NCBI GenBank assembly: GCA_965649265.1
Contig: CBFGKC010000006.1
Location: forward strand, 114,975-178,974
DNA length: 64,000 nt
From: a candidate division WOR-3 bacterium
GTDB taxonomy: Bacteria > Hydrothermota > Tepidihabitantia > B3-TA06
Reading direction: 5' to 3'
Shown here in pieces: positions 4,678 to 60,295 of this stretch. The translations under genes were made by a program, and so were the position numbers. Numbering within the stretch: position 1 is the first letter of the stretch; every line of letters starts with the position of its first letter. The notes under the pieces were generated by a model, which ran no database searches, was not told the DNA's origin, and was given only the letters and a program-made list of their open reading frames with translations.

Positions 4678-4720
4678 TTTTGTCCATCTTTTGTCCCACT
4701 TTTGTCCAGCTTTTTTTACC
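4678..4720 (+). repeat. Phased 11-bp T-tract array (TTTTGTCCATC TTTTGTCCCAC TTTTGTCCAGC TTTTTTTACC)
   Basis: Direct reading. Near-identical copy at 49618-49661 and a variant at 49685-49728. Confidence 0.8.
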
Positions 4721-14492: not shown

Positions 14493-14521
14493 AGTGTATA
14501 CCGAAACATGTGATTTGTCAA
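14493..14521 (-). promoter_or_regulatory. sigma70-type promoter TTGACA-N17-TACACT (minus strand)
   Basis: TTGACA 14521-14516, TACACT 14498-14493, about 30 nt upstream of ATG 14459. Confidence 0.4.
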
Positions 14522-14671
14522 GCCCTTCTGTGAGCTTCTGGTCATCTAAGTCAAGCCAAAAAAACATCTGTAACCGTCAGCCCTCTCAGTCATATCCCGG
14601 CATTGGTCTTACAGACTGAGTTAATTGGAATAATATCCAAATCACAAGCAGAGAAAGATGTGTTACTGAGT

Positions 14672-14968
14672 CCTCCTCAGAAACCTCCTCAGAGCTACCC
14701 CTCAGTCTTCCTTACATCCCCGGCGCTCCTCATTGGATCAGTAATAATGAAACAGCAGAAGCCGGAGGGTTCTGCCAATGCGCCTCCGGCGCTCCTCATT
14801 GGAGAGTAGAAGTAAAATGGCGGAAGCGGAGCTTGCGCCCAGCGCCTTCGAGGCGCTCGCTCTCCTCAGAAATACCCTGACACATGTCTGACACACTGAG
14901 CTAATCTTAGCGGTATGTTTCTATTTATGAGCTATGAGGGAGAAGGGGGGGCAGGAGCCCTCCTCAGA
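14672..14968. repeat. Composite repeat island: CCTCCTCAGA copies plus GC hairpins (GCGCC-TCC-GGCGC, GCGCA/G-GCT-TGCGC)
   Basis: CCTCCTCAGA at 14672 and 14684, with shorter CTCCTCAGA/CCTCAGA copies ending at 14870 and 14968. The segment 14790-14855 is about 85% identical to the 86-bp unit at 51946 and 52078. Confidence 0.75.
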
Positions 14969-15040
14969 GACCTCTCGGTGTCGATTTTACATAATTTTCT
15001 GAGCGGAGTATCTTTCTATTCACGACCAATGAGGGATGGT

Positions 15041-15096
15041 GTGTTACGGGGGGGGGACGGGTGTTACGGGTGGGTGTTACGGGTGGCGTTACGGGG
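15041..15096 (-). repeat. C-rich decamer array (CCCGTAACAC on the gene strand), 4 copies, overlapping the rSAM stop codon
   Basis: Plus strand reads GTGTTACGGG at 15041, 15061 and 15074, and GCGTTACGGGG at 15087. Same motif arrays occur at 48002-48082 and 58790-58832. Confidence 0.8.
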
Positions 15097-16688: not shown

Positions 16689-16717
16689 TGGTCAATATAC
16701 GGCTGATAGGGATGGTG

Positions 16718-17278: not shown

Positions 17279-17307
17279 GTTTTACTGTACCTCACTTTTC
17301 CGGACTG

Positions 17308-17865
17308 TCAATCTTTTTCTGTCGAATCGGGTTCAGAAATCACAAGCTGCAGCCCTTCAACATTTATGCCTGCCTGCGGGGTGTAGAATGTGATGTAAAC
17401 CCGGGTGGTTTCGGGTCCAAGCCCGGTGACGCACAGACGGCCTTCAACTGTCTCGAGCGTGTCCGAAAACTTGCCGTCGACCGCACGGAGAGGGACAATA
17501 ACCGTATCGCCGCCAATTCTTGCATCCGCTCCGGAGATTATATTGCCTTCAAGTTTCGAATCGTAGACCCTTGCGGTCGCTCTCACCGTAACCGAGTCGG
17601 CGCCATTTGTGGGGTTAGGCGTAATAGCAGCCTCAGTGATTATTACCGGTTCAATGACGACCGGATCATAACAGGTCGCATACCCCCTGGTCTCTTGGGC
17701 CGAGAGCCAGCCTAGTAAGCCCAGGATGAAACCCAGAATGTAGATTTTTGCAAATCTCGCGAATCCCTTAAGAACCCCTTCCTCCTCCCACCTTGAGAGA
17801 AGCGGGAAGAGTTTTGCTCCAACATTGCTTACAAACGCCGCGAGCGAGCTGCGAGCTTTGGCCAT
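17308..17865 (-). CDS. Array paralog P3
   Basis: AAGGAGG RBS. MAKARSSLAAFVSNVGAKLFPLLSRWEEEG. ATCYDP. TPNPTNGADSVTVRATARV. DGKFSDTLE. Tail EPDSTEKD. Confidence 0.85.
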   Translation of the reverse strand: MAKARSSLAAFVSNVGAKLFPLLSRWEEEGVLKGFARFAKIYILGFILGLLGWLSAQETRGYATCYDPVVIEPVIITEAAITPNPTNGADSVTVRATARVYDSKLEGNIISGADARIGGDTVIVPLRAVDGKFSDTLETVEGRLCVTGLGPETTRVYITFYTPQAGINVEGLQLVISEPDSTEKD

Positions 17866-17929
17866 AAAATTCCTCCTTGACTGCGACTACTCCTGTTATA
17901 CAGTTGCAGGTGCAATAAATTCCCTTAAC

Positions 17930-18469
17930 CTATTCGGTTATCTCGATATCTGAGCTGTCTTCGATTACCTTGTTCTTGCTTGTAGATATTCTGACATGGA
18001 CTTTTGCGTTTGCGGTATCGATACCCCTGATGCTTAACTTCGCCGAGATTTCCTCGTATGAACCGTCAAAAGCACTATCCGCAGCCAGCATCTCCACCGT
18101 GTCGGAATTTGCACCTTTCCCGGTAATGAAACACTGTGCCGATTTTACATAATTGTCCTTGGAGCCTGGGATTATATTGGCTCTGGCTTTGACCATAACC
18201 GAGTCGGCTCCAGCCGTAGGATCAGGCAAAACCTCGATATTATGAATGGGGGGAGGTACAGGCTCGTAGCACGTGACCGGGCAGCAGGCGGTCGAGCCGG
18301 CCGCTCCGGAAAGACCTAATCCTGAAACGAGTGCACTCAGGAATGAAAGCTTCATCCACCTTGCAAGCTTGGGTAGTACCCTGCGTTCCTCGCATCTTGA
18401 GTAGAAGTCAAAAAGCGCAAAACCGGCTTTCCTGAGAATCTCGAAAACAATGTGTCTTGCCTGAGCCAT
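17930..18469 (-). CDS. Array paralog P4
   Basis: The track ORF extends to 18547. ATG 18469 (MAQARHIVFEILRKAGFALFDFYSRCEERRVLP) aligns with the other N-termini and removes the overlap with P5. VTCYEP. LPDPTAGADSVMVKA. Confidence 0.8.
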   Translation of the reverse strand: MAQARHIVFEILRKAGFALFDFYSRCEERRVLPKLARWMKLSFLSALVSGLGLSGAAGSTACCPVTCYEPVPPPIHNIEVLPDPTAGADSVMVKARANIIPGSKDNYVKSAQCFITGKGANSDTVEMLAADSAFDGSYEEISAKLSIRGIDTANAKVHVRISTSKNKVIEDSSDIEITE

Positions 18470-18476
18470 GATACTG

Positions 18477-19016
18477 CTATTCTGATTCCGTGATGTACAA
18501 ATCCACTGTCGTGTAATCTCGCTCCCCTTTATTGGAGGTGGCCTCAATGTTTACACTGCAGGTATCGCCTGCGGCAAGATTGCCTACGTATAATCGAGCT
18601 TCTACGTCTTTCATTCCGTATGGATCGGTTTTCGTGACAATCATCGTTATGGTGTCGTCATTAAGAACACATATCACCTTATCCACATAATCTTCTTCTA
18701 TGCTTACTCCATTGGGGACATTTGCGCTCGCTTCAACGGTTACTGAATCTGAGCCTGACGTCGGATTAGGGGTTATTGAGCAGGTTGCGATTTGAGGTTT
18801 CGGGTACTCCATCGGTGCGTAACACGTTATGCAGTTGAGCATGCTGGCCGCACTCAATGCGGTAATTCCTGTCACGAAGGCTCCGAGGAAGGTCGTTTTT
18901 ACCCACCTGGAAGCCCTTGGCAGTATCCCGCAATCCTCACAGTGGGAGAAGAAGTTGAAGAGTGATGTTCCCATTCTCCTCAAGGTTTCAAAGAAGAGGT
19001 AGCGGCTACTGGCCAT
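18477..19016 (-). CDS. Array paralog P5
   Basis: GGAGG RBS. MASSRYLFFETLRRMGTSLFNFFSHCEDCGILPRASRWVKTTFLGAFVTGITALSAASM. ITCYAP. TPNPTSGSDSVTVEA. Confidence 0.85.
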   Translation of the reverse strand: MASSRYLFFETLRRMGTSLFNFFSHCEDCGILPRASRWVKTTFLGAFVTGITALSAASMLNCITCYAPMEYPKPQIATCSITPNPTSGSDSVTVEASANVPNGVSIEEDYVDKVICVLNDDTITMIVTKTDPYGMKDVEARLYVGNLAAGDTCSVNIEATSNKGERDYTTVDLYITESE

Positions 19017-19031
19017 TGTGCCTCCGGTGAT

Positions 19032-19547
19032 TTATTCAGTTATCTCGAGGTCGATTGTTGTATCCGCTCGCTGGTCTTCATTGTCGTATTCTGTGATTTG
19101 TATGGTTACTGTATCGGGCTCGAGGTCTCCTATATACAACTTCGCGTTCACGGCATATTCATTCGTGTAGTCTCCAGGCTCTATCTTCATGACGGTGGTG
19201 TCATTCTCGAGGATACATATCACCTTTTTCAATTCAATCCCGTTATCGGCAATTGCCTTGGCGGAAACGCTAACAGTGTCGGCCCCTGCCGTAGGATTTG
19301 GTGCCACGGAGGCGTTTTCGATTCGAGGTGATTCAATTGGCAAGTAGCAGCCGGTGGGGATACAGTTGATCATGCTGGCCGCGCTCAACGCGGTAATTCC
19401 TGTCACGAAGGCTCCGAGGAAGGTCGTTTTTACCCACCTGGAAGCCCTTGGCAGTACCCCGCATTCCTCACAGCGAGAGAAGAAGTTAAAGAGTGAGGTG
19501 CCTATCCTCCTCAAGGATTCAAAGAAAAAAAACTTTGTTCTAGCCAT
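19032..19547 (-). CDS. Array paralog P6
   Basis: ATG 19547 after AAAGGAGG (track ORF extends to 19580). MARTKFFFFESLRRIGTSLFNFFSRCEECGVLPRASRWVKTTFLGAFVTGITALSAASM. TGCYLP. APNPTAGADTVSVSA. Confidence 0.85.
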   Translation of the reverse strand: MARTKFFFFESLRRIGTSLFNFFSRCEECGVLPRASRWVKTTFLGAFVTGITALSAASMINCIPTGCYLPIESPRIENASVAPNPTAGADTVSVSAKAIADNGIELKKVICILENDTTVMKIEPGDYTNEYAVNAKLYIGDLEPDTVTIQITEYDNEDQRADTTIDLEITE

Positions 19548-19569
19548 GGTTCCTCCTTTCACTGTATTA

Positions 19570-19597
19570 AATATAATCAACTTGCTCGGATTGTCAA
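19570..19597 (-). promoter_or_regulatory. Internal sigma70-type promoter TTGACA-N16-TATATT inside the array (upstream of P6)
   Basis: TTGACA 19597-19592, TATATT 19575-19570, in the 82-nt P7-P6 gap. Confidence 0.45.
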
Positions 19598-19629
19598 TCC
19601 ATGAAAATCACCTGAAATCCTGGCAGGTG

Positions 19630-20157
19630 TTATTTATCAGTAACGCGGAGAACGGTCGAGCCTATGCCCCAGCCTGAGGTTTTTGAATCGACTTTTACAA
19701 AGACCTGAGTGCTGTCCGTTTTGATTTTCTTCACGTATATGCGCCCGATGAGTTCCTCATTATTCTCGTCGAATGCGCCGTCCCTCGCTATCATCCGGAT
19801 GGTGTCTCCATCGACTATGCACTGGGCTGAGGCTATTATTTCGAGATCGCTTGCGTTTTCAAGTCTGGCTTTGGCGGTAACGGTCACCGAGTCGGCGCCT
19901 TTCGTCGGGTTAGGCTTGACTACTATCTCCGAAACCCTGGGATATACGGCCACAGGTTCGTAGCAGGTCACGAGCCCCTGATCCAGCGGAGGTTTTTTGG
20001 CGCATGCCGCAATGATGGTCAGCCACGCTCCAGCAAGCGCGAGCTTGAGCCAGCGTGATATCCTTGGCAGAGCGCTTCGTTCCTCACACCCGGTCAGAAT
20101 GGAGAACAGTGCCGAGCCTGTTCTCCTCAAAAACCTTGACAGTAACTCTCGCTTCAT
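19630..20157 (-). CDS. Array paralog P7, lipobox variant
   Basis: MKRELLSRFLRRTGSALFSILTGCEERSALPRISRWLKL. Lipobox-like IAAC. VTCYEP. KPNPTKGADSVTVTA. ATGA overlap with the P8 stop. Confidence 0.8.
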   Translation of the reverse strand: MKRELLSRFLRRTGSALFSILTGCEERSALPRISRWLKLALAGAWLTIIAACAKKPPLDQGLVTCYEPVAVYPRVSEIVVKPNPTKGADSVTVTAKARLENASDLEIIASAQCIVDGDTIRMIARDGAFDENNEELIGRIYVKKIKTDSTQVFVKVDSKTSGWGIGSTVLRVTDK

Positions 20158-20726
20158 AACGAGTCCTTTTCAGTGATAAATAGCGGTAATGAAACCAGTG
20201 CTTCTTCACCCTTGGAAGTGGCCGCGTGCACGTAGACGAAGGTGGTCCCGGGTTTAAGACCCGCGACGCTGATGCGTGCCTCAATCATCTCGACGGTATC
20301 CGAGAAGCGGCCGTCCACAGGGTACATCCGGATTTTCCTTGACGTATCAATGGCCATTACGAGCCAAGCATCCGACACGTAATTGTTCTCAAGGCCAGGT
20401 TCCAGCACCCTTGCGGTGCCCGTTATCTTGACAGTGTGCACGCCCCTTGTCGGGTTCGGGCTTGCCTGAACTACTGAGATTTCGGGATCCATCCTTCTCA
20501 TCATGTAACATGTGTGGACAGGACCGTCGCCGTCTCCTCCTGGTCCGGGTCTTGCCTTTTTCCCGCACGAGGCTATCAGGGCGACAACGAGCCCGAGTAG
20601 CGAAACCTTCAAAAAGCGCGCGGTCTTTGAAAATATTGGAGTATCCTGGCATCTCGATAGCGCATTAAACACCAGATTACCTGCATTTCTGAGAACTGCA
20701 ATCAAGCTCTTTCTCATCTTTGCCAT
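20154..20726 (-). CDS. Array paralog P8, lipobox variant
   Basis: MAKMRKSLIAVLRNAGNLVFNALSRCQD. Lipobox-like IASC, then Gly/Pro/Asp linker. HTCYM. SPNPTRGVHTVKITG. DGRFSDTVE. Confidence 0.8.
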   Translation of the reverse strand: MAKMRKSLIAVLRNAGNLVFNALSRCQDTPIFSKTARFLKVSLLGLVVALIASCGKKARPGPGGDGDGPVHTCYMMRRMDPEISVVQASPNPTRGVHTVKITGTARVLEPGLENNYVSDAWLVMAIDTSRKIRMYPVDGRFSDTVEMIEARISVAGLKPGTTFVYVHAATSKGEEALVSLPLFITEKDSL

Positions 20727-20745
20727 TCTGCCTCTCCTATCTCGT

Positions 20746-21288
20746 TTAATCTGGTTCAGTAATCACCAGTTCTAAAGATTCAATTTCAATTTGACCGGAA
20801 GAATTTTCTACCTCTAAGTATATCCATGTCGTTTCCGGCTCAAGGTCTCCAACGTAAAGTCGGCCGACTATTCTCTCCGAAGCGGCGTCGAATTTCCCGT
20901 CAATCGCCCGCATGGGGTAATATATTGTATCTCCATCCATTCTCATGCGGGCTGAGCTTATCGTGCTTTCGCCGCTGTAGTGATCGCTAATCTTTGCCGT
21001 GGCCTTGACGGTTACCGAATCGGCGCCCCTTGTAGGGTTAGGCCTTACGGAAAGTTTGGATAGTTCTATGAGGGGAGGGGGGGCGGGCTTGTAGCACATT
21101 ATGACGTCTTCCTTTGCTTCGAGCGAGAGAGCGCTCACGAGTGCCACGAAAAATCCGAGGAATGTGAGCTTCAACCATCTTGCCGCCCCGGGGAGGATGC
21201 GGCGTTCCTCGAATCCGGAAAACGTTCCGAAAAGCCTTCCGCCAATCCTTGCAAAAAAGTCTGCCAGGCGTTTTCTGAGTTCAGGCAT
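20746..21288 (-). CDS. Array paralog P9
   Basis: AAGGAGGA RBS embedded in the P10 tail codons. MPELRKRLADFFARIGGRLFGTFSGFEERRILPGAARWLKL. IMCYKP. RPNPTRGADSVTVKATAKI. DGKFDAASE. Confidence 0.85.
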   Translation of the reverse strand: MPELRKRLADFFARIGGRLFGTFSGFEERRILPGAARWLKLTFLGFFVALVSALSLEAKEDVIMCYKPAPPPLIELSKLSVRPNPTRGADSVTVKATAKISDHYSGESTISSARMRMDGDTIYYPMRAIDGKFDAASERIVGRLYVGDLEPETTWIYLEVENSSGQIEIESLELVITEPD

Positions 21289-21289
21289 A

Positions 21290-21859
21290 TCAATCCTCCT
21301 TATTCTCGTTGCTGTCCGCTTCCGGTGCGGTGATGATTAATTGCCTCCAGGTGCTTTCCGCGTTGCCTGAGTTTGTCCTCACCACTATGTAAATCCAGGT
21401 GGTCTCCGGCTTGTGATCCCCGACGTAGAGACGGCCTTCGACTGTTTCAAGGGTATCGCCGAACTTACCGTCAACCGCTTTCATCGGATATAAAAGGGTA
21501 TCTCCGGTAAGCTGCATAATTGCTTCGGAAACAGCGGTGTCACCTGAGCAATAATATGCAGATTCCAATTTTGCGGTTGCCTTGACTGTAACGGTGTCTT
21601 TTCCTGCAGTGGGGTTCGGTGTTGCCGAGACATCGAAGATACTTAAGTGAGGTTCCTCAATAGGCACGTAGCACATGATGATATCGTCGTCCGCCTTGAG
21701 CGCTGGCGCGCCCAGCAGGGTTACCAGCAATCCCAGAACCGAAAGCTTTAGCCATCTTGCCGGTCTGCGTAGGATACCGCGTTCCTCCAATCCGGACAGT
21801 ATCCCGAATAAGGAGCCGCCTATCCGTGAAGAGATGCGGGCCAGTAAGCCTTTTGTCAT
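21290..21859 (-). CDS. Array paralog P10
   Basis: The ATG directly follows the P11 stop (TAGATG). MTKGLLARISSRIGGSLFGILSGLEERGILRRPARWLKL. IMCYVP. TPNPTAGKDTVTVKATAKL. DGKFGDTLE. Tail EADSNENKED. Confidence 0.85.
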   Translation of the reverse strand: MTKGLLARISSRIGGSLFGILSGLEERGILRRPARWLKLSVLGLLVTLLGAPALKADDDIIMCYVPIEEPHLSIFDVSATPNPTAGKDTVTVKATAKLESAYYCSGDTAVSEAIMQLTGDTLLYPMKAVDGKFGDTLETVEGRLYVGDHKPETTWIYIVVRTNSGNAESTWRQLIITAPEADSNENKED

Positions 21860-22435
21860 CTACTCCTCCCTGGCAGCGCTCGAATCAGCTGCGAGCGAAT
21901 CAATCCTTGTTACGGTGTAGGACTGCCAAAGAATCTCTTCATCTTCTCTGGAACTCGTCACGTCTATAAAGAACCAGTGGGTGCCGGTATCCAGGTCGCC
22001 TGTGTAAAACATGGCCTCAAGAACCTCAAGAGTGTCGTTAAGCTTGCCGTCCACGGCCTTCATGGGAATCCTCAGGGTGTCACGCTGCCTGGAAAGCCAG
22101 GCGTTTCGGATGTAATTGTTCTCAAGGGTCGGGTCCAGAACTTTTGCAGTTACCTTTACTTTTACCGAGTCCGCTCCTCGAGTCGGATTTGGTGTGATGG
22201 ACACATCCGAAATCTTTACCTCCGGCATCCTCATGGCTACGTAACAGGTCTTAATTGTTTCTACCTCGGCGGAAAGTGCTCCGATGGCTGCGGTAAGAAA
22301 TCCAAGCAGTGAGAGCTTTAACCAGCGCGAAGCGCTGGGCACAATCCCGCGCTCTTCGAATCGCGACAGGAGTGAAAAGAGACCTCCTCCCAGCACTTCA
22401 AGAATCCTTACGACGAACCCTTTCGTTCTCGCCAC
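21860..22435 (-). CDS. Array paralog P11
   Basis: The track ORF extends to 22654. GTG 22435 (AAAGGTGGAG RBS, 1 nt after the P12 stop) gives MARTKGFVVRILEVLGGGLFSLLSRFEERGIVPSASRWLKL, matching the family. KTCYV. TPNPTRGADSVKVKV. Confidence 0.75.
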   Translation of the reverse strand: MARTKGFVVRILEVLGGGLFSLLSRFEERGIVPSASRWLKLSLLGFLTAAIGALSAEVETIKTCYVAMRMPEVKISDVSITPNPTRGADSVKVKVTAKVLDPTLENNYIRNAWLSRQRDTLRIPMKAVDGKLNDTLEVLEAMFYTGDLDTGTHWFFIDVTSSREDEEILWQSYTVTRIDSLAADSSAAREE

Positions 22436-22436
22436 G

Positions 22437-23009
22437 TCACTCCACCTTTGTCGAATCAGTCCTGATAGAATCAGGCTCCGAGACTTCAAAATAAAACCAG
22501 CTCGCTTCCAGTGCATCCTGGGATGTCTGGACGAGCATTGAGATCGAGTACTGGCCCGGTTCAAGATTTCCAACGTAAACCGTACCCTCGAGCACCTCGA
22601 GCGTGTCGTCCATCTTGCCGTCAAGTGCTTTGACCTTGAACCTCGTCGTATCACCGTCCCAGGAGAGCCAGGCGTCCTTTATGAAGTTATCCTTGATATT
22701 CGAGTACATCACCTTGGCCTGGGCCTTCACTTTCACCGAATCCGCTCCCTTCGTGGTATCAGGGGTTACGGACTTCTCTGTTATGATGACGTCGGGAATC
22801 CTCGCGACGATGTAGCAGGTGACTTCCGGATCCCTGGCTTGAAGTGAGAGTGTCGCGACTAGCGAGGCTATGATTCCCAGGGTCGAGATCTTTATCCATC
22901 TCGCGGCACGCGGCATGACGCCTTTTTCTTCTATCATTGTCAGAAAATGGAAAATTGCATCTCCCAGTTTCCCTAACAGCCTGGATAAGAGGTTGCGTGT
23001 CTTGGCCAT
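22437..23009 (-). CDS. Array paralog P12 (first gene of the operon)
   Basis: ATG 23009 after AAAGGAG (track ORF extends to 23087). MAKTRNLLSRLLGKLGDAIFHFLTMIEEKGVMPRAARWIKI. VTCYI. TPDTTKGADSVKVKA. DGKMDDTLE. Confidence 0.8.
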   Translation of the reverse strand: MAKTRNLLSRLLGKLGDAIFHFLTMIEEKGVMPRAARWIKISTLGIIASLVATLSLQARDPEVTCYIVARIPDVIITEKSVTPDTTKGADSVKVKAQAKVMYSNIKDNFIKDAWLSWDGDTTRFKVKALDGKMDDTLEVLEGTVYVGNLEPGQYSISMLVQTSQDALEASWFYFEVSEPDSIRTDSTKVE

Positions 23010-33793: not shown

Positions 33794-33820
33794 ACGCTGT
33801 CAGTAATGCAACAATCGTTT

Positions 33821-33966
33821 TGTTGCCGCAATGACACGGTCATTGCACTCCACACGGACTTGTTGCCGCAATGACACGGTCATCGCACTCCACACGGACT
33901 TGTTGCCGCAATGACGCGGTTATCGCACTCCACACAGACTTTGTTGCCGCAATGGCGCGGTCATAA
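33821..33966. repeat. 40-bp tandem direct repeat, about 3.6 copies, each with an 8-bp-stem hairpin
   Basis: Unit TGTTGCCGCAATGACACGGTCATTGCACTCCACACGGACT at 33821, 33861 and 33901, with a partial copy at 33942. GCAATGAC-ACG-GTCATTGC hairpin in each unit. No spacers. Confidence 0.9.
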
Positions 33967-42650: not shown

Positions 42651-43584
42651 ACTGGGTTGGGCCCTCCTCCTCATCCTGCTTCTCATACTCGTTTCTCTCT
42701 CCCTCCTTATCGGTCCGGCGGGGCTTTCCTTCGGCCTGATTCTGTCTCGCCTGCCGAGAACCTTTCTCACACTCTTTGCAGGCGGCATCCTCGCTCTCGT
42801 CGGCGCGGCGCTTCAGGGGCTTTTGGAGAATCCGCTCGTCGATCCCTACATCATAGGCTCCTCATCAGGCGCAGGTGTCGGTGTTGCCCTTGCCTTGCTC
42901 ACCGGCTGGACATCGGTGTACGGCAGACCCTTGTTCGCATTCGCAGGCGCAATGGGTGCGCTTCTTCTCGTATACTTCTTTGCCCGCATGAAGGGCCGTA
43001 TCTCACGTCTCTCCCTTATCCTATCCGGGGTCGCGGTCGGCTTCGTGGGTTCGAGTCTCGTAATGATTCTTATGGTGCTTTCCCGCTCCGAACTCTCCCA
43101 GATCATCTACCTCCTTATGGGTTCCACCAACATCATCTTCACCCCTCAGGAGTTCTGGACCTTTGTTATCTCCGCATTTCTCTCCATAGTCCTTTGCACC
43201 TGGCTTATCACGCGCTGGCGCTCACTCGACATACTTTCCGCAAACATCGAGTCCGCCGAATCGCTCGGGGTCAACACCCAGCGACTGACGACCGAGGTTT
43301 TCATCATTTCAGCCGTGCTCGTGGGCGTTGTGGTCGCGTTTGCGGGCGCCGTCAGCTTCGTGGGTCTGATAGTTCCCCACATCGCCAGATTCATATTCGG
43401 TCCAAGGCATTTGCGCGTGCTGCCTGCAAGCTTTCTTGCCGGCGCGTCCTTGTTACTTCTTTCAGACATCATCCTCAGGCTTTTTGCCATGCTCACGAAC
43501 GTCTACCTGCCTTTGTCCGTCATCACCACTCTCGCAGGCGTGCCGTTCTTTCTTTTCATCATGAGAAGGAAGTCGAATGTTTGA
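42637..43584 (+). CDS. FecCD/BtuC-family ABC transporter permease
   Basis: 315 aa, about 9-10 TM. ...NPLVDPYIIGSSSGAGVG... and ...ESAESLGVN... motifs of FecCD permeases. Confidence 0.85.
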   Translation: MMRARLGWALLLILLLILVSLSLLIGPAGLSFGLILSRLPRTFLTLFAGGILALVGAALQGLLENPLVDPYIIGSSSGAGVGVALALLTGWTSVYGRPLFAFAGAMGALLLVYFFARMKGRISRLSLILSGVAVGFVGSSLVMILMVLSRSELSQIIYLLMGSTNIIFTPQEFWTFVISAFLSIVLCTWLITRWRSLDILSANIESAESLGVNTQRLTTEVFIISAVLVGVVVAFAGAVSFVGLIVPHIARFIFGPRHLRVLPASFLAGASLLLLSDIILRLFAMLTNVYLPLSVITTLAGVPFFLFIMRRKSNV

Positions 43585-44344
43585 GGTTCGTTCTCTTTCC
43601 TTTTCCTATCCCAGACGCCCGCTGTTCGAGAACCTTTCCGTCGGCATCGAAAAAAACGAGTTCGTCTCGGTCGTCGGTCCTAATGGGGCGGGCAAGAGCA
43701 CGTTCGTCAAGCTTCTGGCTAGGCTTCTTTATCCCTCATCCGGCAAGATACTGTTCGAGAAGCGATCCCTCGCCTCTTATCCCCGCCGCGAACTCGCAAG
43801 GCGAGTGGCGTACGTTCCGCAGGAGAGCCATTTTTCCCTCGACTTCACCGTTCTCGAGACCGTGCTTCAGGGACGCCATCCCTATCTGGGCGCGCTCGAA
43901 TTGTATCGCTCTTCCGACTACGCGCTCGCGCGCTCGTCGCTCGAAAGGCTCGGGATACTCCATCTCGCCGGGAAGAACATCAACAATATCTCCTCTGGTG
44001 AGCGCCAGCTTGCCGTCATATGCCGCTCGCTCGTGCAGGAGCCGTCGATCATCCTTCTTGACGAGCCCCTCAATCACCTCGACCTGCACCACCAGCTAGA
44101 AGTCCTTGTCCTTCTCAGGTCCCTTAACCGGGAGGGGATAGGTATCGTTCTCGTCGCCCATGACCTCAATCACGCAGCGCTCTGCTCGAACCGCATGCTC
44201 ATCTTCGCCCAGGGCCGTCTTGCGGAGGATAATTCTCCAGACGTTCTTCTCAATCCGGATATCATCGAACGCTACTGGGGCATCAGACCTCTCGAAGGCC
44301 GCCACCCTGAAACCGGCAAGCGCCAGATATTCCTGCCACTGTAG
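43577..44344 (+). CDS. ABC transporter ATP-binding protein (iron-chelate/cobalamin type)
   Basis: Walker A GPNGAGKST, signature-like ISSGERQ, Walker B IILLDEP. Confidence 0.85.
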   Translation: MFEVRSLSFSYPRRPLFENLSVGIEKNEFVSVVGPNGAGKSTFVKLLARLLYPSSGKILFEKRSLASYPRRELARRVAYVPQESHFSLDFTVLETVLQGRHPYLGALELYRSSDYALARSSLERLGILHLAGKNINNISSGERQLAVICRSLVQEPSIILLDEPLNHLDLHHQLEVLVLLRSLNREGIGIVLVAHDLNHAALCSNRMLIFAQGRLAEDNSPDVLLNPDIIERYWGIRPLEGRHPETGKRQIFLPL

Positions 44345-44416
44345 ATTACCCCAAAATAATACTCCGTATTCTTTTGGGGACCCCGTAAGACACGAAAGCG
44401 CGAATCCCACACAAGC

Positions 44417-44496
44417 CCCTTCAGATTTTCCTCAGCCCTCCTCAGCCCCCCTCACTCTCCCCTCAACTCGCCTCAGTTCCCCTCAGCCTTCCTCGG
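44417..44496 (+). repeat. 10-bp periodic C-rich array (CCTCAG/CCTCAC/CCTCAA/CCTCGG, 7 copies)
   Basis: CCTCAG at 44430, 44440, 44471 and 44481; variants at 44450, 44461 and 44491. About 85 nt after the ABC ATPase stop. Confidence 0.8.
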
Positions 44497-46738: not shown

Positions 46739-47998
46739 ATGGAGCACATCCCACTCCTTGCGAAGCTCGGAATTATCTTCGGCGTCATCATCGTCGTCAT
46801 GGTATTCAGGCTGCCCACGTTCGTGCCAATCCTTTTGGGCGCTGTCGTCACCGGCGTCCTCTTCACCATGCCCGCGCTCGATATCGGAAGAACATTCCTC
46901 GACAGCGTAATAGACTTCTACACCATTGACACCATCCTCATCGTCTGCTTCATCGAGATTCTCGGCAAGATGATGAAGGAGCGCGGCATCCTCTCGCGAT
47001 TCGCCGGCGGCGCCGACTACCTTCTGCGGGGCTCTCGCGTGAGCGTGGTCACGATCCCCATGTTCGTCGGCCTCCTGCCAATGCCGGGCGGCGCCTACTT
47101 CACCGCACCCATGACCGAGGAGCAGATAAAACCCTACGGAATAAAGCCCGGGCTCGCGGTCTACATCAACTACTGGTTCCGGCACGTGTGGGAGTACTTC
47201 TGGCCGCTTTACCCCGGCCTCATCGTGGGCTTCGCCATCCTCAAGGACGTCACCGTCGGCTCCGTCATCATCCACCAGTCGTTCGTGACACTGCTCGCGA
47301 TTGCGGCGGGCGCCGTCATCATCTTTGCCTTCGTCAAGCGCAGGGTGGTGCGGCCGGAGCGTCTTGCGGGCAAGGGTCGTTCTTCCACAAAAGACGTGCT
47401 CTACGGCGCGTTCCCTCTACTCATCATCGTCGTCCTCATCGTGGTCACGCAGGCGCTTGGCTCCATAGTCAAGATTCCCGTTTCCTCCGTCATGCTGATC
47501 GTGCTGGTCTCTTCGTGGATATTCTACAAGGTTCCATTGAAAGGTTCAGGCAAGCTCATTCTTTCCGCGCTCGACTGGCGCGTGATCTCGCTCATGGCGT
47601 CGGTCATGTTCTTCAAGTACATGCTCGACCGTTCGTCCGCGCTGACCGGGCTCGGCCCGATGCTTGCAGGGGCCCCCTCCTCCCTCATCATCGCCATGAT
47701 AATGTTTCTTCCCTTCGTGGTCGGACTCCTCGTGGGACTCAACCAGGCGTACGTTGCCACGACGTTTCCCCTGCTCGCGCCCTTCATCGGCCATGACCCC
47801 GGACTCGTCATGCTCGCGTACGCGTTCGGGTTCTTCGGCGTGATGCTCTCGCCCTCGCACCTCTGCCTTGCCTTATCGCGCGAGTACTTCAAGGCGAGCT
47901 GGGGCTCGGTGTACAAGTGGTTGGTGCCCTCAGTGATCGCGGTCGCCGTCGTGACGTTCGCCGTGTGGTTCTTCCTGTTCCCGCATCCTAAACTATAG
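46739..47998 (+). CDS. Multi-pass integral membrane protein (permease-like, possibly DUF401-type)
   Basis: 419 aa with about 11-12 hydrophobic helices. The family call is a weak recollection only. Confidence 0.6.
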   Translation: MEHIPLLAKLGIIFGVIIVVMVFRLPTFVPILLGAVVTGVLFTMPALDIGRTFLDSVIDFYTIDTILIVCFIEILGKMMKERGILSRFAGGADYLLRGSRVSVVTIPMFVGLLPMPGGAYFTAPMTEEQIKPYGIKPGLAVYINYWFRHVWEYFWPLYPGLIVGFAILKDVTVGSVIIHQSFVTLLAIAAGAVIIFAFVKRRVVRPERLAGKGRSSTKDVLYGAFPLLIIVVLIVVTQALGSIVKIPVSSVMLIVLVSSWIFYKVPLKGSGKLILSALDWRVISLMASVMFFKYMLDRSSALTGLGPMLAGAPSSLIIAMIMFLPFVVGLLVGLNQAYVATTFPLLAPFIGHDPGLVMLAYAFGFFGVMLSPSHLCLALSREYFKASWGSVYKWLVPSVIAVAVVTFAVWFFLFPHPKL

Positions 47999-48001
47999 AT
48001 A

Positions 48002-48082
48002 CCCCCCGTAACACCCCCCCCCGTAACACCCCTCCCGTAACACACCCCCGTAACACACCCCGTAACATGCTCCGTAACACGC
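48002..48082 (+). repeat. C-rich decamer array, 6 copies of CCGTAACAC at 12-15 bp spacing
   Basis: Copies at 48006, 48021, 48035, 48048, 48060 (CCGTAACAT) and 48072. The array starts 8 nt after the stop codon at 47996-47998. Confidence 0.9.
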
Positions 48083-48294
48083 CAACGTCATCCTGAGAAC
48101 CGCAGATGCGGGGCGAAAGGATCGCCTTCAGAAGGCAGTTTCTTTGAACACATGGGATCATTTATGTCTAAGGCGATGGCTTTGCTTGCTCGAAGCAGCC
48201 GTGCAAAGACACCCTCGTCCCACTTTCCCAGAGGGCAGGGGGTGTCCCACTTCGATAGGGGGGAGGGGGGGATTAATGTTTTGAGGGGGTCAGG

Positions 48295-48996: not shown

Positions 48997-49617
48997 TCGG
49001 TTTCATATCCTCTCCATTTTGAAGCCGCGGGTATTCCCACTCTGGATAATCAGCATATTCAATAACGCCGTTCAGTCAACCTTGCAGGCTCGACGTTAAC
49101 GCCTCAAGCGTTTGCGTGAGTCAGGTCAGCCCGAATGGTGCGGGCCGACCTAAAGGTCGGCCCCTACGTTGTGTTAGTCATAAGGTGCATTTGTACCCTT
49201 CGTTCGCCCTTCGGTGGCTTCGTAGCCACTCGGGGTTGCATGTGCGGAACTACGTTCCACGAAGACTATTTCCAATTAAGGAGTATCGCCAGGGGTGATT
49301 TCGTCATCTTCGATTGCGGAAGGAACTTCCGCCCATGCGGATTCCATCCGCTCGCTCGCCAACGACAATCTAATGAATCCCCCTTGCCTTTCGGGCGTTC
49401 CCCCTTAATAAGGGGGATGTTACGGCCCCCCTTCGATAAGGGGGGAGCGGGGGGATTCTCCCGGTCTTCGTCTCTCGTTTAATGGGAGGGAAAGTCAACC
49501 CCTCCTCTTAATCCTCTTCGCAAGGGGGAGGAGGTTTTACTTTCAGTCGGTAAATTTCCATAATTTTCCTCCCGAGACCGTCCGTTTTTTGCCCCCAAAA
49601 TGCCCTCAAAACCCCGG

Positions 49618-49728
49618 TTTTGTCCATCTTTTGTCCCACTTTTGACCAGCTTTTTTTTCACGAAAATTGCCCCAAAATGCCCGATTTGTCCATCTTTTGA
49701 CCATCTTTTGTCCCACTTTTTTTATGCC
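49618..49728 (+). repeat. Two phased 11-bp T-tract arrays (TTTTGTCCATC TTTTGTCCCAC TTTTGACCAGC ...)
   Basis: 49618-49661 is near-identical to 4678-4720. Second array at 49685-49728 (ATTTGTCCATC TTTTGACCATC TTTTGTCCCAC TTTTTTTATGC). Confidence 0.85.
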
Positions 49729-51102: not shown

Positions 51103-51828
51103 TTAGTTATCGGTAAGTTTGAAATTTACGGGAACCGAAATCTTGACGGCCAGCGGTTTTTCGCCCTGCATTGCCGGTGTAAAGCGCGCGTTGCGAACGG
51201 CTTCCTCCGCGGCGTTATCAAGCTCTTCATATCCGGAACTCTTCAATATTTGTGTGTCGAAGACAAGCCCTTGTTCGTCCAGTGCCGCACCGACTATGAC
51301 CAATCCCTCAACTTCCAATTTACGCATCCGTTCAGGATACTTGATATCCATTCCCCCGATAAGTTGCGGTTTTTTTGCACTTGCAGGTAAAAAGGGGACA
51401 TCGTTGATGGTTCTGATGATTCTGTCGCCGCCGATGATTCCGGGGTCAATCAAATTTGTATTTCCAGGGAGAATGGAATCAGCGGTCTGGCCAGGTGCAG
51501 CTTTCTCAATCTGGACCACTTTGTTGTCGATGGGAGGAGGAGTGTTGGGGTAGTTCTCGACGGTGATTCCGCCCCAGTCGATGATATCGCTGCCTGAAAC
51601 CGGTTTAACGTTCAGGGGTTTGATCGTAAAGCTTCCAAGGAACGCGAAAATTAGTATAGACGCTCCCAGCGCTCCAATCACTCCCACTTGCAGTCTTTCG
51701 GTTGCATGTTCGCGGATGGTGGCAATTTTTGCTTGCATTTCATCCTCCTTTGCATTGTTATACATCTTGTCCCAAGGTTTATTCCGCTCTCCATGATTTG
51801 TAATCGTGAATCGCATAAGCTTATGCAA
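51103..51828 (-). CDS. TonB-family protein (C-terminal TonB domain)
   Basis: One TM (VGVIGALGASILIFAFLGSF). C-terminal ...YPERMRKLEVEGLVIVGAALDEQGLV...NAAEEAVRNARFTPAMQGEKPLAVKISVPVNFKL. The true start may be an internal Met. Confidence 0.7.
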   Translation of the reverse strand: MHKLMRFTITNHGERNKPWDKMYNNAKEDEMQAKIATIREHATERLQVGVIGALGASILIFAFLGSFTIKPLNVKPVSGSDIIDWGGITVENYPNTPPPIDNKVVQIEKAAPGQTADSILPGNTNLIDPGIIGGDRIIRTINDVPFLPASAKKPQLIGGMDIKYPERMRKLEVEGLVIVGAALDEQGLVFDTQILKSSGYEELDNAAEEAVRNARFTPAMQGEKPLAVKISVPVNFKLTDN

Positions 51829-51845: not shown

Positions 51846-52170
51846 GCCCTCCTCAGACCCCCTCAGACCCTCCTCAGACCCTCCTCAGACTATCCTCAGA
51901 CTATCCTCAGACTATTGGGGGCTCAACACCTTGCAGAATTCTATTCTGCGCATGCGCCTCCGGCGCTAGCCCTTTGGATAAGTAGAAATGAAATGGCGGA
52001 AGCGCAGCTTGCGCCCAGCGCCTCCGGCGCTCCTCCTTAGATCGGTAATAGTGAAATCGCAGAAACCCCATGGGCTTCTGCGCATGCGCCTCCGGCGCTA
52101 GCCCTTTGGATAAGTAGAAATGAAATGGCGGAAGCGCAGCTTGCGCCCAGCGCCTCCGGCGCTAGCCCTG
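51846..52170. repeat. Composite repeat island: 6 copies of CCTCAGA (10-11 bp period) followed by an 86-bp GC-hairpin unit duplicated at 132-bp spacing
   Basis: CCTCAGA at 51851, 51861, 51872, 51883, 51894 and 51905. An identical 86-mer occurs at 51946-52031 and 52078-52163. Related to 14790-14855. Confidence 0.9.
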
Positions 52171-57018: not shown

Positions 57019-58787
57019 GAAAAGAAGAAACTGGTCGAATAGTAAAGGTATCGGGCCCGCTGGTCATTGCCGAGGGTATGAGTACCTCAAAGATGTACGA
57101 CGTGGTTAAAGTGTCGGACAAGCGTCTTGTTGGTGAAATTATTGGATTGTCAGGCACTCGTGCCTCGATACAGGTTTACGAGGAGACAGGCGGTATCGGC
57201 CCCGGTGAACCCGTATATCCGACATACGAACCCCTTTCCGTGGAGCTTGGTCCGGGTCTTATTGAGGCCATTTACGACGGGATTCAGCGTCCCCTGTCAG
57301 ATATAGCGGATAAAACGGGAGCCTTCATATCCCGAGGTGTTGAAGTGCCTGCGCTGCCGCGCGACAAGAAATGGGATTTCGTCCCCTCCCTCAAGAAGGG
57401 CGACAAGGTTGGGCCTGGCGATGTGCTCGGAACGGTCAAGGAAACGATACTCATCGAGCACCGTATACTGGTTCCACCGGGTGTATCCGGCGAAATCGTA
57501 GAAATATCAAAAGGCTCGTTTAACGTGGAGTCGACCGTTGCCGTCATCAAATCACCCGAAGGTAAAAGCATCGAAGTCGCAATGATGCAGCGCTGGCCGG
57601 TCAGAAAACCCCGTCCGTATATGCGCAAATATTCGCCATTTGAGATTCTATCCACGGGGCAGCGCGTTGTGGACACGTTCTTCCCGCTCGGAAAGGGTGG
57701 AACCGCATGCGTTCCAGGGCCGTTCGGATCGGGCAAGACCGTCATCCAGCATCAGCTGGCCAAGTGGGCGGATGCCGAAGTGATCGTCTACGTGGGCTGC
57801 GGCGAGCGCGGAAACGAGATGACCGATGTGCTCATAGAGTTCCCGGAACTCAAGGACCCCAAATCGGGCGAGCCCCTTATGAAACGCACGGTGCTCATCG
57901 CCAACACATCGAACATGCCGGTTGCCGCACGGGAAGCGTCGGTCTACACCGGTATTACGATAGCCGAGTACTTCCGTGACATGGGGTATTCGGTTGCCCT
58001 CATGGCCGACTCAACCTCGCGCTGGGCCGAGGCCATGCGAGAGATTTCCGGACGCCTCGAGGAGATGCCCGGTGAAGAAGGTTATCCTGCATATCTTTCC
58101 GCTCGCATCGCCGAGTTCTACGAACGCGCTGGACTTGTCGAATGTCTGGGCTCGACCTCGAAAAGAGGGGCCCTGTCCGTTATCGGCGCCGTGTCCCCTC
58201 CGGGCGGCGACCTTTCGGACCCGGTCGTTCAAGCCACCTTGCGCGTCGTAAAGGTTTTCTGGTCGCTAGAGGACAAACTGGCCTACGCCCGCCATTTTCC
58301 TGCAATTTCCTGGTTGCGCTCTTACTCCTTATATGTCGATTCGATCTCGGCAAAGCTGCGTGAAGAGATAGGAACTAACTTCCTTGAGGATACGAAGGAA
58401 GCCATGAGACTCTTGCAGGAGGAGGCCGATCTGACCGAGATAGTCCGACTCATCGGCATTGACGCACTTTCACCTAACGAACGCCTCATTATGGAAGCGG
58501 CGCGTTCGATTCGCGAGGACTTTCTGCACCAGAACGCGTTCCACGAGATTGACACGTACGCCAGCCTTGATAAACAGGCACGTATGCTTTCCCTTGTTCT
58601 CTGCTACTACAAAGAAACCAAGAAGGCACTCGAACAGGGAGCACTTCTTGAAGATCTCGTCAGCCTCCAGGTTCGTGAAAAGATTGCCCGAGCTCGCTAC
58701 CTGCCTGAGAGCGAGCGCGAAACCATCACTAAAACCGAGGAGGAGGTTATCGCTGAAATCGCTTCCTTAAAGAAGGAGGTCTCCTGA
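57015..58787 (+). CDS. atpA: V/A-type ATP synthase catalytic subunit A
   Basis: Walker [10 protein letters not shown]. ...[11 protein letters not shown]..., ...[13 protein letters not shown]... 590 aa. GTG start after GGAGG, overlapping the atpF stop. Confidence 0.9.
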
Positions 58788-60295
58788 TGCCCCGTAACAC
58801 CCGTAACACACCCAATCCCTCCCATAACACCTCCCAAACTCTTGAGGAAACCTCTGGTTTAAAGCCTACTGTGGAAGATAAACCCAAGGGTATAATCGAT
58901 TACCAGACGATTACCTCTGTTTCTGGTCCACTCCTTCTCGTTGAGGGAGTCGAAGGAGTCAAGTATGAGGAGCTTGTTGAGATATTCCTTCCCTCAGGCG
59001 AACGCCGCAGGGGAAGGGTGCTTGAGGTTAACCAGGACAAGGCGCTCATACAGATATTTGAGGGTTCCTCGGGAATCGAGATAGGCCAGACAAGGGTACG
59101 CTTTCTTGGCAAGGGCATAACCTTGGGGGTCTCCGAGGAACTTCTCGGCCGCGTATTCGACGGCCTGGGCCGCCCGCGCGACAGCTCACCCGAGCTTATC
59201 CCTGAAGAATTTCGCGACATCAACGGTCTTCCAATCAATCCCTTCGCTCGCAGCTACCCCAACGAGTTTATCGAGACAGGCATCTCCGCTATAGACGGAT
59301 TGAACACGCTAGTACGTGGGCAGAAGCTTCCTATCTTCTCCGGTTCCGGTTTGCCGCACAACCGCATGGCGGCTCAGATAGCGCGTCAGGCAAAAGTACT
59401 CGGCGCAGCGGAGGAGTTTGCGGTGGTGTTCGGCGCAATGGGCATCACGTTCGAGGAAGCCCAGTTCTTTATCGATGATTTCCGCCGTACAGGGGCCCTT
59501 GAGCGCGCGGTACTCTTTCTTAACCTTGCGGACGACCCTGCAATCGAGCGAATCGCGACACCGCGTGTTGCGTTCACCGCAGCGGAGTATCTCGCCTTTA
59601 CGAAGAATTATCACGTCCTCGTTATCCTCACAGACCTGACCAATTACTGCGAGGCCCTTCGTGAGATATCCGCCGCCCGAAAGGAGATTCCCGGTCGGCG
59701 CGGTTACCCCGGCTATCTATACACCGATCTTGCCACCATCTACGAGCGATCAGGCCGCATCAAGGATTCGACCGGTTCCATAACCCTCGTTCCCATTCTC
59801 ACCATGCCCGAGGACGACAAGACCCACCCTATTCCAGACCTTACCGGGTATATCACCGAGGGGCAGATCATCCTTTCCCGCGTACTCAATAACAAGAACG
59901 TCGCTCCGCCGGTAGACGTACTCCCCTCCCTCTCCCGTCTCAAGGACAAGGGTATAGGCAAGGGAAAAACTCGCGAGGATCACGCGGATTCGTTTAACCA
60001 GCTTTACGCCGCGTATGCACGAGGCAAGGAAGCCCAGGAACTGGCCGTGATTCTCGGTGAGGCGGCGTTGACCGATATCGACAAGCTTTACATGAAATTT
60101 GCCGAGGCGTTCGAGCGCCGCTACATTTCCCAGGGCGAGTACGAGGCTCGCAGCATCGAGGAGACACTTGATTTGGGTTGGGAGCTTTTGACCAGTCTTC
60201 CGCGTTCGGAGATGAAGCGCGTTCGGGACGAAAACCTTGCAAAGTATTACGATACCGCGTTCGCAAAATTCCAGAAGACCGGGGAGAAATCATAA
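58787..60295 (+). CDS. atpB: V/A-type ATP synthase subunit B (with about 28-35 aa repeat-encoded N-terminal extension, or alternative GTG start at 58871)
   Basis: ...[28 protein letters not shown]... core and ...[19 protein letters not shown]... The ATG overlaps the atpA TGA (TGATG) with AAGGAGG 7 nt upstream. Confidence 0.9.
58790..58832 (+). repeat. C-rich decamer array (CCGTAACAC x2 plus CCCATAACAC) immediately after the atpA stop, inside the annotated atpB 5' end
   Basis: CCGTAACAC at 58792 and 58801; CCCATAACAC at 58821. Confidence 0.85.

Follow-up and report, generated by a model that had tools for sequence, protein, structure and literature searches.

The window, meaning the whole 64-kb stretch of DNA analyzed here (64,000 nt), carries three arrays of a short C-rich motif. 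One follows a DUF401 membrane protein gene, one lies at the junction of the V-ATPase genes atpA and atpB, and one lies at the end of a radical-SAM/SPASM (rSAM) gene. The features discussed below are listed in window coordinates.

4078-4086 (plus strand) and 4262-4270 (minus strand): single motif copies in inverted orientation, inside ORF 2652-4340
14493..14526, minus strand: relic of an ancestral gene end and promoter, with GGGCTTGACAAAT at 14526-14508 (compare GTGCTTGACAAATAA in orthologs)
14527..15096, minus strand: repeat island of ~570-590 nt between the rSAM gene end and the promoter of the next gene
15041..15096, minus strand: array 3, units at 15041, 15061 and 15074 plus a degenerate first unit CCGTAACGC at 15086
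15089-16111, minus strand: radical-SAM/SPASM gene, whose stop codon is the TAA of the degenerate unit of array 3
46739..47998, plus strand: DUF401 membrane protein gene (Pfam PF04165, E = 2e-48), whose TAG stop (47996-47998) precedes array 1
48002..48082, plus strand: array 1, six non-coding units, each a C-run followed by CGTAACA(C/T), with a period of 12-15 nt
48083..48145, plus strand: hairpin elements 3' of array 1, a GTCATCCTGAG...AGGATC hairpin followed by a terminator-like hairpin
49412..49425, minus strand: single inverted motif copy, reading GGGGGATGTTACGG on the plus strand, between two CCCCC...GGGGG hairpins
58787..58873, plus strand: N-terminal low-complexity extension of AtpB, which holds array 2 in the frame CGT-AAC-ACC (R-N-T)
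58792-58830, plus strand: array 2, units at 58792 and 58801 plus CCATAACAC at 58822

An earlier note on this DNA had claimed three C-rich arrays, and all three were located in the window at these positions. Its statement on strand also held, as the C-rich sequence of arrays 1, 2 and 3 has the sense orientation of the gene upstream. Matches of the CCGTAACAC type with at most one mismatch numbered 33 in the window compared to 9.6 expected, and 33 was reached in 0 of 100 shuffles. Exact CGTAACAC was present 16 times (1.3 expected). In array 1 the CCGTAACAC units start at 48006, 48021, 48035, 48048, 48060 and 48072, with spacings of 15, 14, 13, 12 and 12 nt, and the unit at 48060 is CCGTAACAT, with one mismatch. 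The six copies described by the note, 12-15 nt apart with the first 8 nt past the last base of the stop (47998), were therefore found; if the C-run is counted the array begins 3 nt past the DUF401 TAG stop. Array 1 comprises 76 nt with 53% C and 9% G, and its RNA was predicted to be unpaired over the first ~57 nt. The terminator-like hairpin downstream, GCCTTCAGAAGGC plus AGTTTCTTT, is located at 48124-48145. Array 3 was, as claimed, made up of four minus-strand copies overlapping the rSAM stop; the TAA (15089-15091) sits in unit CCGTAACGC, and the array RNA was predicted to be unstructured. Array 2 starts 5 nt past the atpA TGA (58785-58787).

The assertion that the motif always lies near a stop codon failed even within the window, where single copies were present at 4078 (plus), 4262 (minus) and 29841 (minus). 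The copies at 4078-4086 and 4262-4270 could be of chance origin. The inverted copy at 49412..49425 lies 1.34 kb downstream of array 1, and a pairing of the two had no statistical support. No match was found in an Rfam scan of the window at the gathering score or, at E ≤ 1, around array 1 and around the element E described below, and a tRNA scan of the window found nothing. GC skew in the window was uninformative. Tandem Repeats Finder also predicted other short tandem arrays in the intergenic DNA of the window (CCTCAGCCCC, CCCTCCTCAGA, TTTTGTCCAAC and 40- and 64-bp repeats).

The V-ATPase subunit B encoded in the window is 502 amino acids long and an identical protein is on record (P0001). Its ATG at 58787 overlaps the atpA TGA, and AAGGAGG lies 7 nt upstream of the ATG. 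Array 2 is not non-coding sequence after the atpA stop; it lies inside the atpB ORF. Seven relatives with AtpB proteins 85-91% identical all have an open in-frame N-terminal extension from the atpA stop, and the number of RNT units in these extensions was at least seven, four, two or zero. At locus L133 the atpB junction reads AAGGAGG-N5-ATGA-(CCCGTAACA..)n and is fully in frame. Because in-frame extensions at the atpA stop recur across the AtpB relatives, array 2 is regarded as translated and not as a post-stop element. The AtpB of the window is 91% identical to that of WOR-3 MAG095 (JAYELY01), an array-rich MAG, and the window belongs to the same WOR-3/Stahlbacteria group.

Array 3 forms the outer edge of the repeat island, which also contains two copies of a 64-bp repeat (14720-14870) and TCTGAGGAGG repeats (~14640-14700). 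The 64-bp repeat is also present at 51944-52169. No array was found at the rSAM orthologs with 89% and 79% identical proteins, where the spacers are 52 nt (L127-129) and 44 nt (L130-132). In these orthologs the -35 box of the next gene's promoter overlaps the final rSAM codons (GTGCTTGACAAATAA). The relic promoter in the window has a -35 TTGACA, a 17-nt spacer and a -10 TACACT, and the downstream gene has its ATG at 14459 with the Shine-Dalgarno sequence GGAGG. Although displaced by ~570 nt, GGGCTTGACAAAT is predicted still to act as the -35 of a good promoter. The rSAM C-terminus reads ...VAQILSAP* in the window and ...VAQVLDK* in the 89% ortholog, and the stop codon of the window gene appears to have been taken from the first repeat unit of array 3. 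A possible C(C/A)CAGA target-site duplication at the rSAM island was weak.

At the DUF401 locus four relatives (L117/118/119, L123, L124) carried a tandem array of a different type 2-19 nt past the DUF401 stop. Its motif is (G/A)(C/A)AGATT, which is G/A/T-rich and not C-rich. A GTCA(C/T)TGCGAG hairpin element related to the GTCATCCTGAG element of the window comes after these AGATT arrays. More distant relatives, with DUF401 proteins 54% identical, carried arrays with the identical core. An exact look-up of the window's DUF401 protein gave no record. The site after the DUF401 stop is a hot spot for short arrays, and C-richness is not its conserved property.

The arrays were variable between close relatives. 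Over 7.4 kb loci L117 and L118 share 95% identity, but two of their arrays differ through in-frame indels of 27 nt, with unit counts of 7 compared to 4 and 3 compared to 4. One ATG start became GTG between the same two loci. L001 and L100 have ~98% identical flanks with 4 and 3 units, respectively, and their island interiors diverge abruptly. A 64-nt element with two hairpins (element E) is embedded in arrays at five loci and was present in one and absent from the other of near-identical partners (L064 and L094; L065 and L023). In the arrays within ComEC at L057 and L113 the 9-nt core is perfect while the flanks have diverged to ~55-65% identity. The length of the C-run also changes between close relatives.

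The distribution of the repeat was investigated by a pattern scan covering 185,579 species, each represented by a single genome, for pairs of units no more than 12 nt apart. At least 116 loci were found among the matches listed. Some 45 of the loci among the matches listed were in ~10 MAGs of Candidatus Stahlbacteria, candidate division WOR-3 or related groups, with up to 10 separate 8-kb loci per MAG among these matches. In a megablast search the window matched none of the 116 pattern loci, and its own genome was thus not among them. Matches in Cloacimonas and Fimbriimonadaceae were set aside due to their different architecture. In viral contigs the 12 pattern matches included no array of this type and were nearly all unrelated 15-nt coding repeats. 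These were repeats of the G-D-x-N-T type in low-GC phage contigs.

The contexts of 62 arrays from the window and related WOR-3/Stahlbacteria genomes were analyzed. Genes in the relatives were called using long-ORF criteria and a simple codon-usage caller, and key cases were checked by Pfam. Each unit, CCCGTAACA(C), combines a 9-nt core with a C-run that varies in length, and 2-7 copies are arranged head-to-tail; the period across the family is 8-30 nt with modes at 9 and 12. Ten of the 62 arrays start 0-15 nt past a same-strand stop (ORFs of at least 150 codons), a frequency which, like the other per-context frequencies given here, is approximate because the gene calls were home-made and the loci were chosen for carrying arrays. 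Random placement gave 0.6 such arrays expected and a maximum of 4 in 2,000 trials. The enrichment at same-strand stop codons is statistically solid. A further five arrays supply the stop codon with their own TAA, so that 15/62 abut or supply a same-strand stop. An opposite-strand stop adjoining the other end of the array was found for none of the 62. Several of the post-stop arrays coincide with a stop/start overlap (ATGA or TGATG) and run on in frame as N-terminal extensions (M-T/P-R-N-T...), examples being atpB in the window and an ABC ATPase in L117, L118 and L123. The arrays in L023, L063 and L065 likewise start at ATGA and run in frame into the downstream ORF.

Stop codons are not the only host feature. 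Nine arrays on the other strand lie upstream of a TTGACA box, at a distance of 0-8 nt, and each of these boxes is accompanied by a plausible -10. TTGACA was present at the opposite array end in none of these nine. The genes behind the nine promoters are unrelated (a Crp-family regulator, TrkH, TadA, a MiaB-like enzyme and a CPBP protease among them). Approximately 25-30 arrays lie within real genes, on either strand and in several frames. Sense copies were found in a lipoprotein linker between the signal peptide and Peripla_BP_2, in a C-terminal tail and in GlyS. Antisense copies were found in GGDEF-TPR (as GVT repeats), ComEC (as VLR repeats) and HypF. The ComEC array is at the same site in two MAGs, as is the HypF array. 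GGDEF-TPR, ComEC, HypF, GlyS and the lipoprotein with Peripla_BP_2 were confirmed as coding hosts by Pfam. Within genes the arrays occupy N- and C-terminal tails, linkers and loops. Arrays also occur within operons (RnfC/RnfD, atpA/atpB and an ABC permease/ATPase junction), and the genes adjoining arrays have unrelated housekeeping functions. The rule linking arrays to stop codons therefore fails for the family as a whole, since arrays are also promoter-side and translated inside genes. Of the two observations which the earlier note had set against its own rule, a distribution random with respect to gene ends was not found, the stop enrichment being real, and absence or replacement of arrays at orthologous loci of relatives was found.

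The spacing between units depends on coding context. Spacings were a multiple of 3 in 54/56 cases in arrays spanned by an ORF, and both exceptions came from array 3 of the window, which is non-coding and was misclassified through a spurious antisense ORF. The antisense copies escape circularity here, since all frames of the G-rich strand are free of stops. Where no ORF spanned the array 37/56 spacings were a multiple of 3, largely because the unit itself is 9 nt, and spacings of 8, 10, 11, 13, 14, 16, 17 and 22 nt were common.

Array DNA is thus translated in three or more frames, with both strands in use, or is left untranslated. Since the motif is present in non-coding DNA and in genes, on both strands and in several frames, it is a DNA-level entity and not a peptide or an RNA signal of one polarity. 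The C-rich arrays are not a dedicated stop-codon-linked termination signal. They are most readily explained, with a probability of about 0.6, as a lineage-specific, dispersed, hypervariable short tandem repeat that exists at the DNA level in the WOR-3/Stahlbacteria clade. The alternative offered by the earlier note, a minisatellite with an insertion preference at gene ends, was essentially borne out by the 10 near-stop arrays (0.6 expected) and the five that supply a stop. An origin as a PRNT peptide repeat was rejected, given that one DNA sequence yields RNT when translated from one strand, GVT or VLR when translated from the other, and is left untranslated elsewhere. Seeding by microhomology at TAA stops was also rejected, as the 10 adjacent stops comprise six TGA, three TAA and one TAG.

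Under this dispersed-repeat explanation, arrays would grow and shrink by slipped-strand mispairing or unequal recombination, and they may arrive together with other intergenic repeat modules as islands. Selection would then decide which survive. Inside genes only spacings that preserve the frame (multiples of 3) would be kept, and only in tolerant places. Where genes are tightly packed the sole permissive slot would be the gap of a few nucleotides from a stop to the promoter or ribosome binding site that follows, and a slot this narrow would leave arrays abutting stops or -35 boxes. As the sense unit holds a TAA, an irregularly spaced array would close an incoming ORF and so overlap the stop automatically. 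Effects on the host would be side effects, such as the replaced rSAM C-terminus, a disordered N-terminal tail on V-ATPase B and an unstructured C-rich 3'UTR on the DUF401 gene.

A purely neutral repeat does not explain three properties, namely the strict polarity, the perfect core and the seeding of new loci. The 5' end of the C-rich strand faces the host feature in all 15 arrays at same-strand stops and in all nine at outward -35 boxes, and the other array end faces island DNA. The slot between stop and -35, which the rSAM locus shows directly, accounts for where the arrays lie but leaves their orientation unexplained. For the core to remain perfect amid diverged flanks there must be selection on the motif itself, concerted evolution or a process that generates this motif specifically. 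Such a polarity would be expected of an array forming the outer end of an inserted element, or of one selected for presenting C-rich RNA to polymerase entering the island. The arrays would then be a functional end-module, either the terminus of an undescribed small insertion element or a Rho-loading pad, with the in-gene copies as domesticated or stranded remnants. This combined form is considered rather improbable.

Its two components were also weighed separately. A small mobile insertion would have the array as its terminal module or footprint, inserting head outward in either orientation and leaving solo in-gene arrays as remnants. It would account for the polarity rule and for the rSAM locus, where a discrete insertion of ~590 nt has the array at its outer edge and filled and empty sites can be compared. 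L004 has a unit of ~130 nt with inverted arrays at both ends, placed exactly between a stop and a -35. The presence or absence of element E in near-identical pairs and the different island interiors of L001 and L100 (~98%) also point this way. Most arrays, however, have no inverted partner. Neighboring clusters were tail-to-tail in 7 cases, head-to-head in 3 and in the same orientation in 19, which supports a model with terminal inverted repeats (TIRs) only weakly. Further, the analysis revealed neither a transposase nor a clear TIR or a clean target-site duplication, element E has no terminal inverted repeats, and the viral contigs scanned held no matching arrays. A mobile insertion is accordingly viewed as an unlikely origin. 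Rho utilization (rut) sites are defined by composition, as ~60-80 nt of C-rich and G-poor RNA, and not by a repeated 9-mer. If the arrays were Rho-loading pads, as the earlier note proposed in reading them as rut-like or other RNA-recognition arrays, their unstructured C-rich RNA would bind Rho and terminate transcription, and translated or antisense copies would be by-products. Array 1 alone fits this composition, being C-rich, G-poor, untranslated, predicted to be unpaired and ~76 nt long, with six units at 12-15 nt giving regular YC dimers, and array 3 is also predicted to be unstructured. A Rho homolog is encoded in the related Stahlbacteria locus L102 (3162-4415, minus strand; 58% identical to E. 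coli Rho over 418 amino acids). Head-outward polarity would be expected if arrays guard against transcription into intergenic islands. As a rule for the family the proposal fails, since most arrays are too short, translated or wrongly oriented. Only 2/25 non-coding arrays are at least 57 nt long (mean 31 nt), and the 60 nt downstream of arrays are not C-rich (28% C, 20% G). Approximately one third of arrays are G-rich in the sense strand, namely those on the promoter side and the antisense copies in ComEC, HypF and GGDEF-TPR. Array 2 is translated, and arrays inside operons (RnfC/RnfD, atpA/atpB, permease/ATPase) are in places where termination would harm. Array 1 itself is already trailed by a hairpin and a terminator-like site, the orthologous DUF401 site holds a G/A/T-rich AGATT array in four relatives, and array 3 is missing from orthologs that keep both genes 44-52 nt apart. 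Rho loading across the family is therefore quite unlikely. It is kept as a possible candidate for array 1 alone and as a possible secondary effect.

Two readings concern the DNA duplex or its folding. The arrays could be rows of double-stranded binding sites for a clade-specific protein, either a nucleoid or boundary factor or an activator upstream of the -35. A perfect core with a variable spacer resembles a row of binding sites more than pure slippage, the core is conserved across deep divergence, and nine arrays are within 0-8 nt of a TTGACA with a plausible -10. Against this, non-coding spacings range from 8 to 22 nt with no helical phasing, the adjoining genes have nothing in common functionally and orthologous loci do without the arrays; such a role is very unlikely. 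Phased arrays such as iterons and OmpR/PhoB-type direct repeats, which have constant spacing near one helical turn, were rejected because the non-coding spacings of 8-22 nt show no preference. A non-B DNA structure, in which a G-quadruplex (G4) formed by the G-rich strand or an i-motif formed by the C-rich strand would serve at transcription-unit boundaries as a block or signal, is highly improbable. Arrays 1 and 3 do account for two of the four canonical G4 motifs in the 64-kb window, both on the template strand of the upstream gene, and the minimal unit is a G3 plus a 6-nt loop. The loop TGTTAC is conserved and the G-run is variable, whereas a G4 would need the reverse. With 2-3 units, most arrays contain too few G-runs, and array 2 gave no G4 match. 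Integron attC sites, which are imperfect palindromes of 55-140 nt with RYYYAAC...GTTRRRY core sites after each cassette ORF, were rejected as a candidate; the arrays are direct repeats with no palindromic partner and their core CCGTAAC does not fit RYYYAAC.

The dispersed-repeat explanation was compared to described repeat families. Heptamer arrays termed STRR were reportedly described in cyanobacteria by Mazel et al. in 1990. The MPTR of Mycobacterium tuberculosis is said to have a 10-bp core with 5-bp spacers (attributed to Hermans et al., 1992). MPTR are essentially coding, in PPE-MPTR proteins, and use one frame. The present repeat shares with MPTR a conserved core of ~10 nt with a variable spacer, a dispersed distribution and partial translation, but uses several frames, both strands and non-coding sites. 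The closest described phenomenon appears, from this comparison, to be the family of TAACTGA heptamer direct repeats in marine Beggiatoaceae, some Cyanobacteria and Bacteroidetes (MacGregor 2015, PMC4679880). These form dispersed sets of 2-6 or more copies which are mostly intergenic and by gene boundaries, mainly just upstream of starts; a forward repeat inevitably closes an ORF, reverse repeats encode peripheral parts of proteins, the neighboring genes share no function and the role is unknown (PMC4679880). Both families have a short unit, many dispersed loci, restriction to a lineage, an orientation whose stop ends ORFs and functionally unrelated neighbors. In place of a fixed heptamer the WOR-3/Stahlbacteria unit has a 9-nt core and a variable C-run with a period of 9-15. 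Its arrays follow stops, precede -35 boxes or lie in frame inside genes, its sense strand closes only one frame per unit, and the clade is different. Long simple sequence repeats (LSSR) with units of 5-11 nt were reported by Mrazek et al. 2007, as summarized in PMC4679880. LSSR and STRR share with the present arrays lineage-enriched tandem short units, a copy number that varies by slippage and tolerance of multiple-of-3 units in coding regions. The present arrays differ in having a perfect core common to several genera-level lineages and a clear polarity to neighboring genes, which is not known to have been reported for those repeats. The features of the LSSR, STRR and TAACTGA type, namely a short unit, many lineage-restricted loci, variable copy number and frame preservation in ORFs, were all found here.

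No paper linking tandem repeats to WOR-3 or Stahlbacteria was found in the literature searched. Dispersed hypervariable short tandem repeats are already known as a kind; the WOR-3/Stahlbacteria-specific family is new. It matters for the annotation of these genomes since arrays create and move stop codons. The arrays add variable low-complexity tails or linkers to V-ATPase B, ABC ATPase, ComEC, HypF and GlyS, and they mark intergenic hot spots of repeat build-up and operon splitting. They reveal no new termination mechanism at present. The polarity and the conserved core make the family a modest but suitable case for studying the origin and maintenance of lineage-specific short repeats, and because the copy number varies the arrays are a possible marker for strain typing. 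The motif also matches 10 of 11 positions of CCCGTCACACC in the 1400 region of 16S rRNA, and this resemblance is probably due to chance.

A second C-rich tandem family has the unit CC(C)TCCTCAGA. The opposite strand reads TCTGAGGAGG, which includes the Shine-Dalgarno-like sequence GGAGG, and the array at 51847 precedes the start of the minus-strand gene 51103-51828 by 19 nt. At both window sites of a 64-bp repeat the copies (3.3 at one, 2 at the other) adjoin the CCTCAGA array upstream of a minus-strand gene. In L067, a locus of another genome, CCGTAACAC and ATCCTCAGA are joined in one 30-nt repeat. Further tandem repeats were present in the window. These were as follows (L-numbers are loci of other genomes, WOR-3/Stahlbacteria among them).

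Window 51847-51912 and 14640-14700; L067 6-133: CC(C)TCCTCAGA tandem family
Window 51954-52169 and 14720-14870: 64-bp repeat GCGCCTCCGGCGCTAGCCC...GGCGGAAGCGCAGCTTGCGCCCA
Window 4678-4714 and 49597-49723; L123 3959-4026: 11-nt tandem repeat TTTTGTCCAAC / TTTTGACCAAC, 3-5 copies
Window 33820-33964: intergenic 40-bp tandem repeat, 3.6 copies, 93% matches
Window 44430-44488: CCTCAGCCCC array, 5.8 copies

The 11-nt repeat is kept in one relative, upstream of the V-ATPase region. The stop codon of gene 43577-44344 lies 86 nt before the CCTCAGCCCC array, which is preceded (window 44346-44393) by a hairpin, CCCCAAAATAATAC-TCCG-TATTCTTTTGGGG, and then ACCCCGTAAGACAC. Similar units of a hairpin plus ACCCCG come after arrays in L103 and L004.

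Directly 3' of the post-stop arrays a recurrent hairpin element, GTCAT(C/T)(C/G)(T/C)GAG..., was found in the forms GTCATTGCGAG, GTCACTGCGAG and GTCATCCTGAG. (G/A)(C/A)AGATT is an additional dispersed tandem family with a period of 7-10 nt, two sets of which, 235 nt apart in L123, make a perfect 18-nt inverted repeat. An element of about 64 nt, designated E (CCCCTnnGGGGCATTyTCAyTATTACTyGGAGCTnnCGCTCC...AAGGAyATAACAC), had no match in Rfam. It is flanked in every case by CCCGTA and ACAC of the CCGTAACAC motif. L064 has a tandem duplication of E, and near-identical partner loci lack it.

Window 48083-48120; L117 ~5300-5360; L123 3042-3080 and 3747-3767: hairpin element
L117 5240-5300; L118/L119 5250; L123 3005-3035 and 3260-3277; L124 2127; L020 4398; L073 3755: (G/A)(C/A)AGATT arrays
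L064 7340-7511; L066 3346-3406; L024 3521-3590; L014 1741-1774; L065 ~1430-1510: element E

A distinct conserved element of Candidatus Cloacimonas, CCGTAACACTTCCGTAACACTTCCGTAGTTCCGTTACGG...GTTGTTACTT..., includes the motif and lies upstream of genes (L018, L045, L046, L050 and L106). Direct and inverted GTAAC/GTTAC copies are mixed within it, and it may be a regulatory region.

Approximately 10 tandem paralogous genes (window 16113-22654, minus strand) lie immediately upstream of the radical-SAM/SPASM gene, an arrangement kept in relatives (L127-L132). Their products, of about 175-205 amino acids, are hydrophobic in an N-terminal segment and acidic at the C-terminus, and all carry a conserved T-C-Y motif. 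Two paralogs checked against Pfam (L127 531-1070 and 1131-1703) gave no match. Together with the radical-SAM/SPASM gene the paralogs may form a substrate/maturase cluster.

In the Stahlbacteria locus L102 (1608-4415, minus strand) rho is located two genes upstream of a release-factor gene with Pfam PCRF and RF-1 domains. The rho product is 58% identical to E. coli Rho. The stop codon of the release-factor gene is contained within an CCGTAACAC array.
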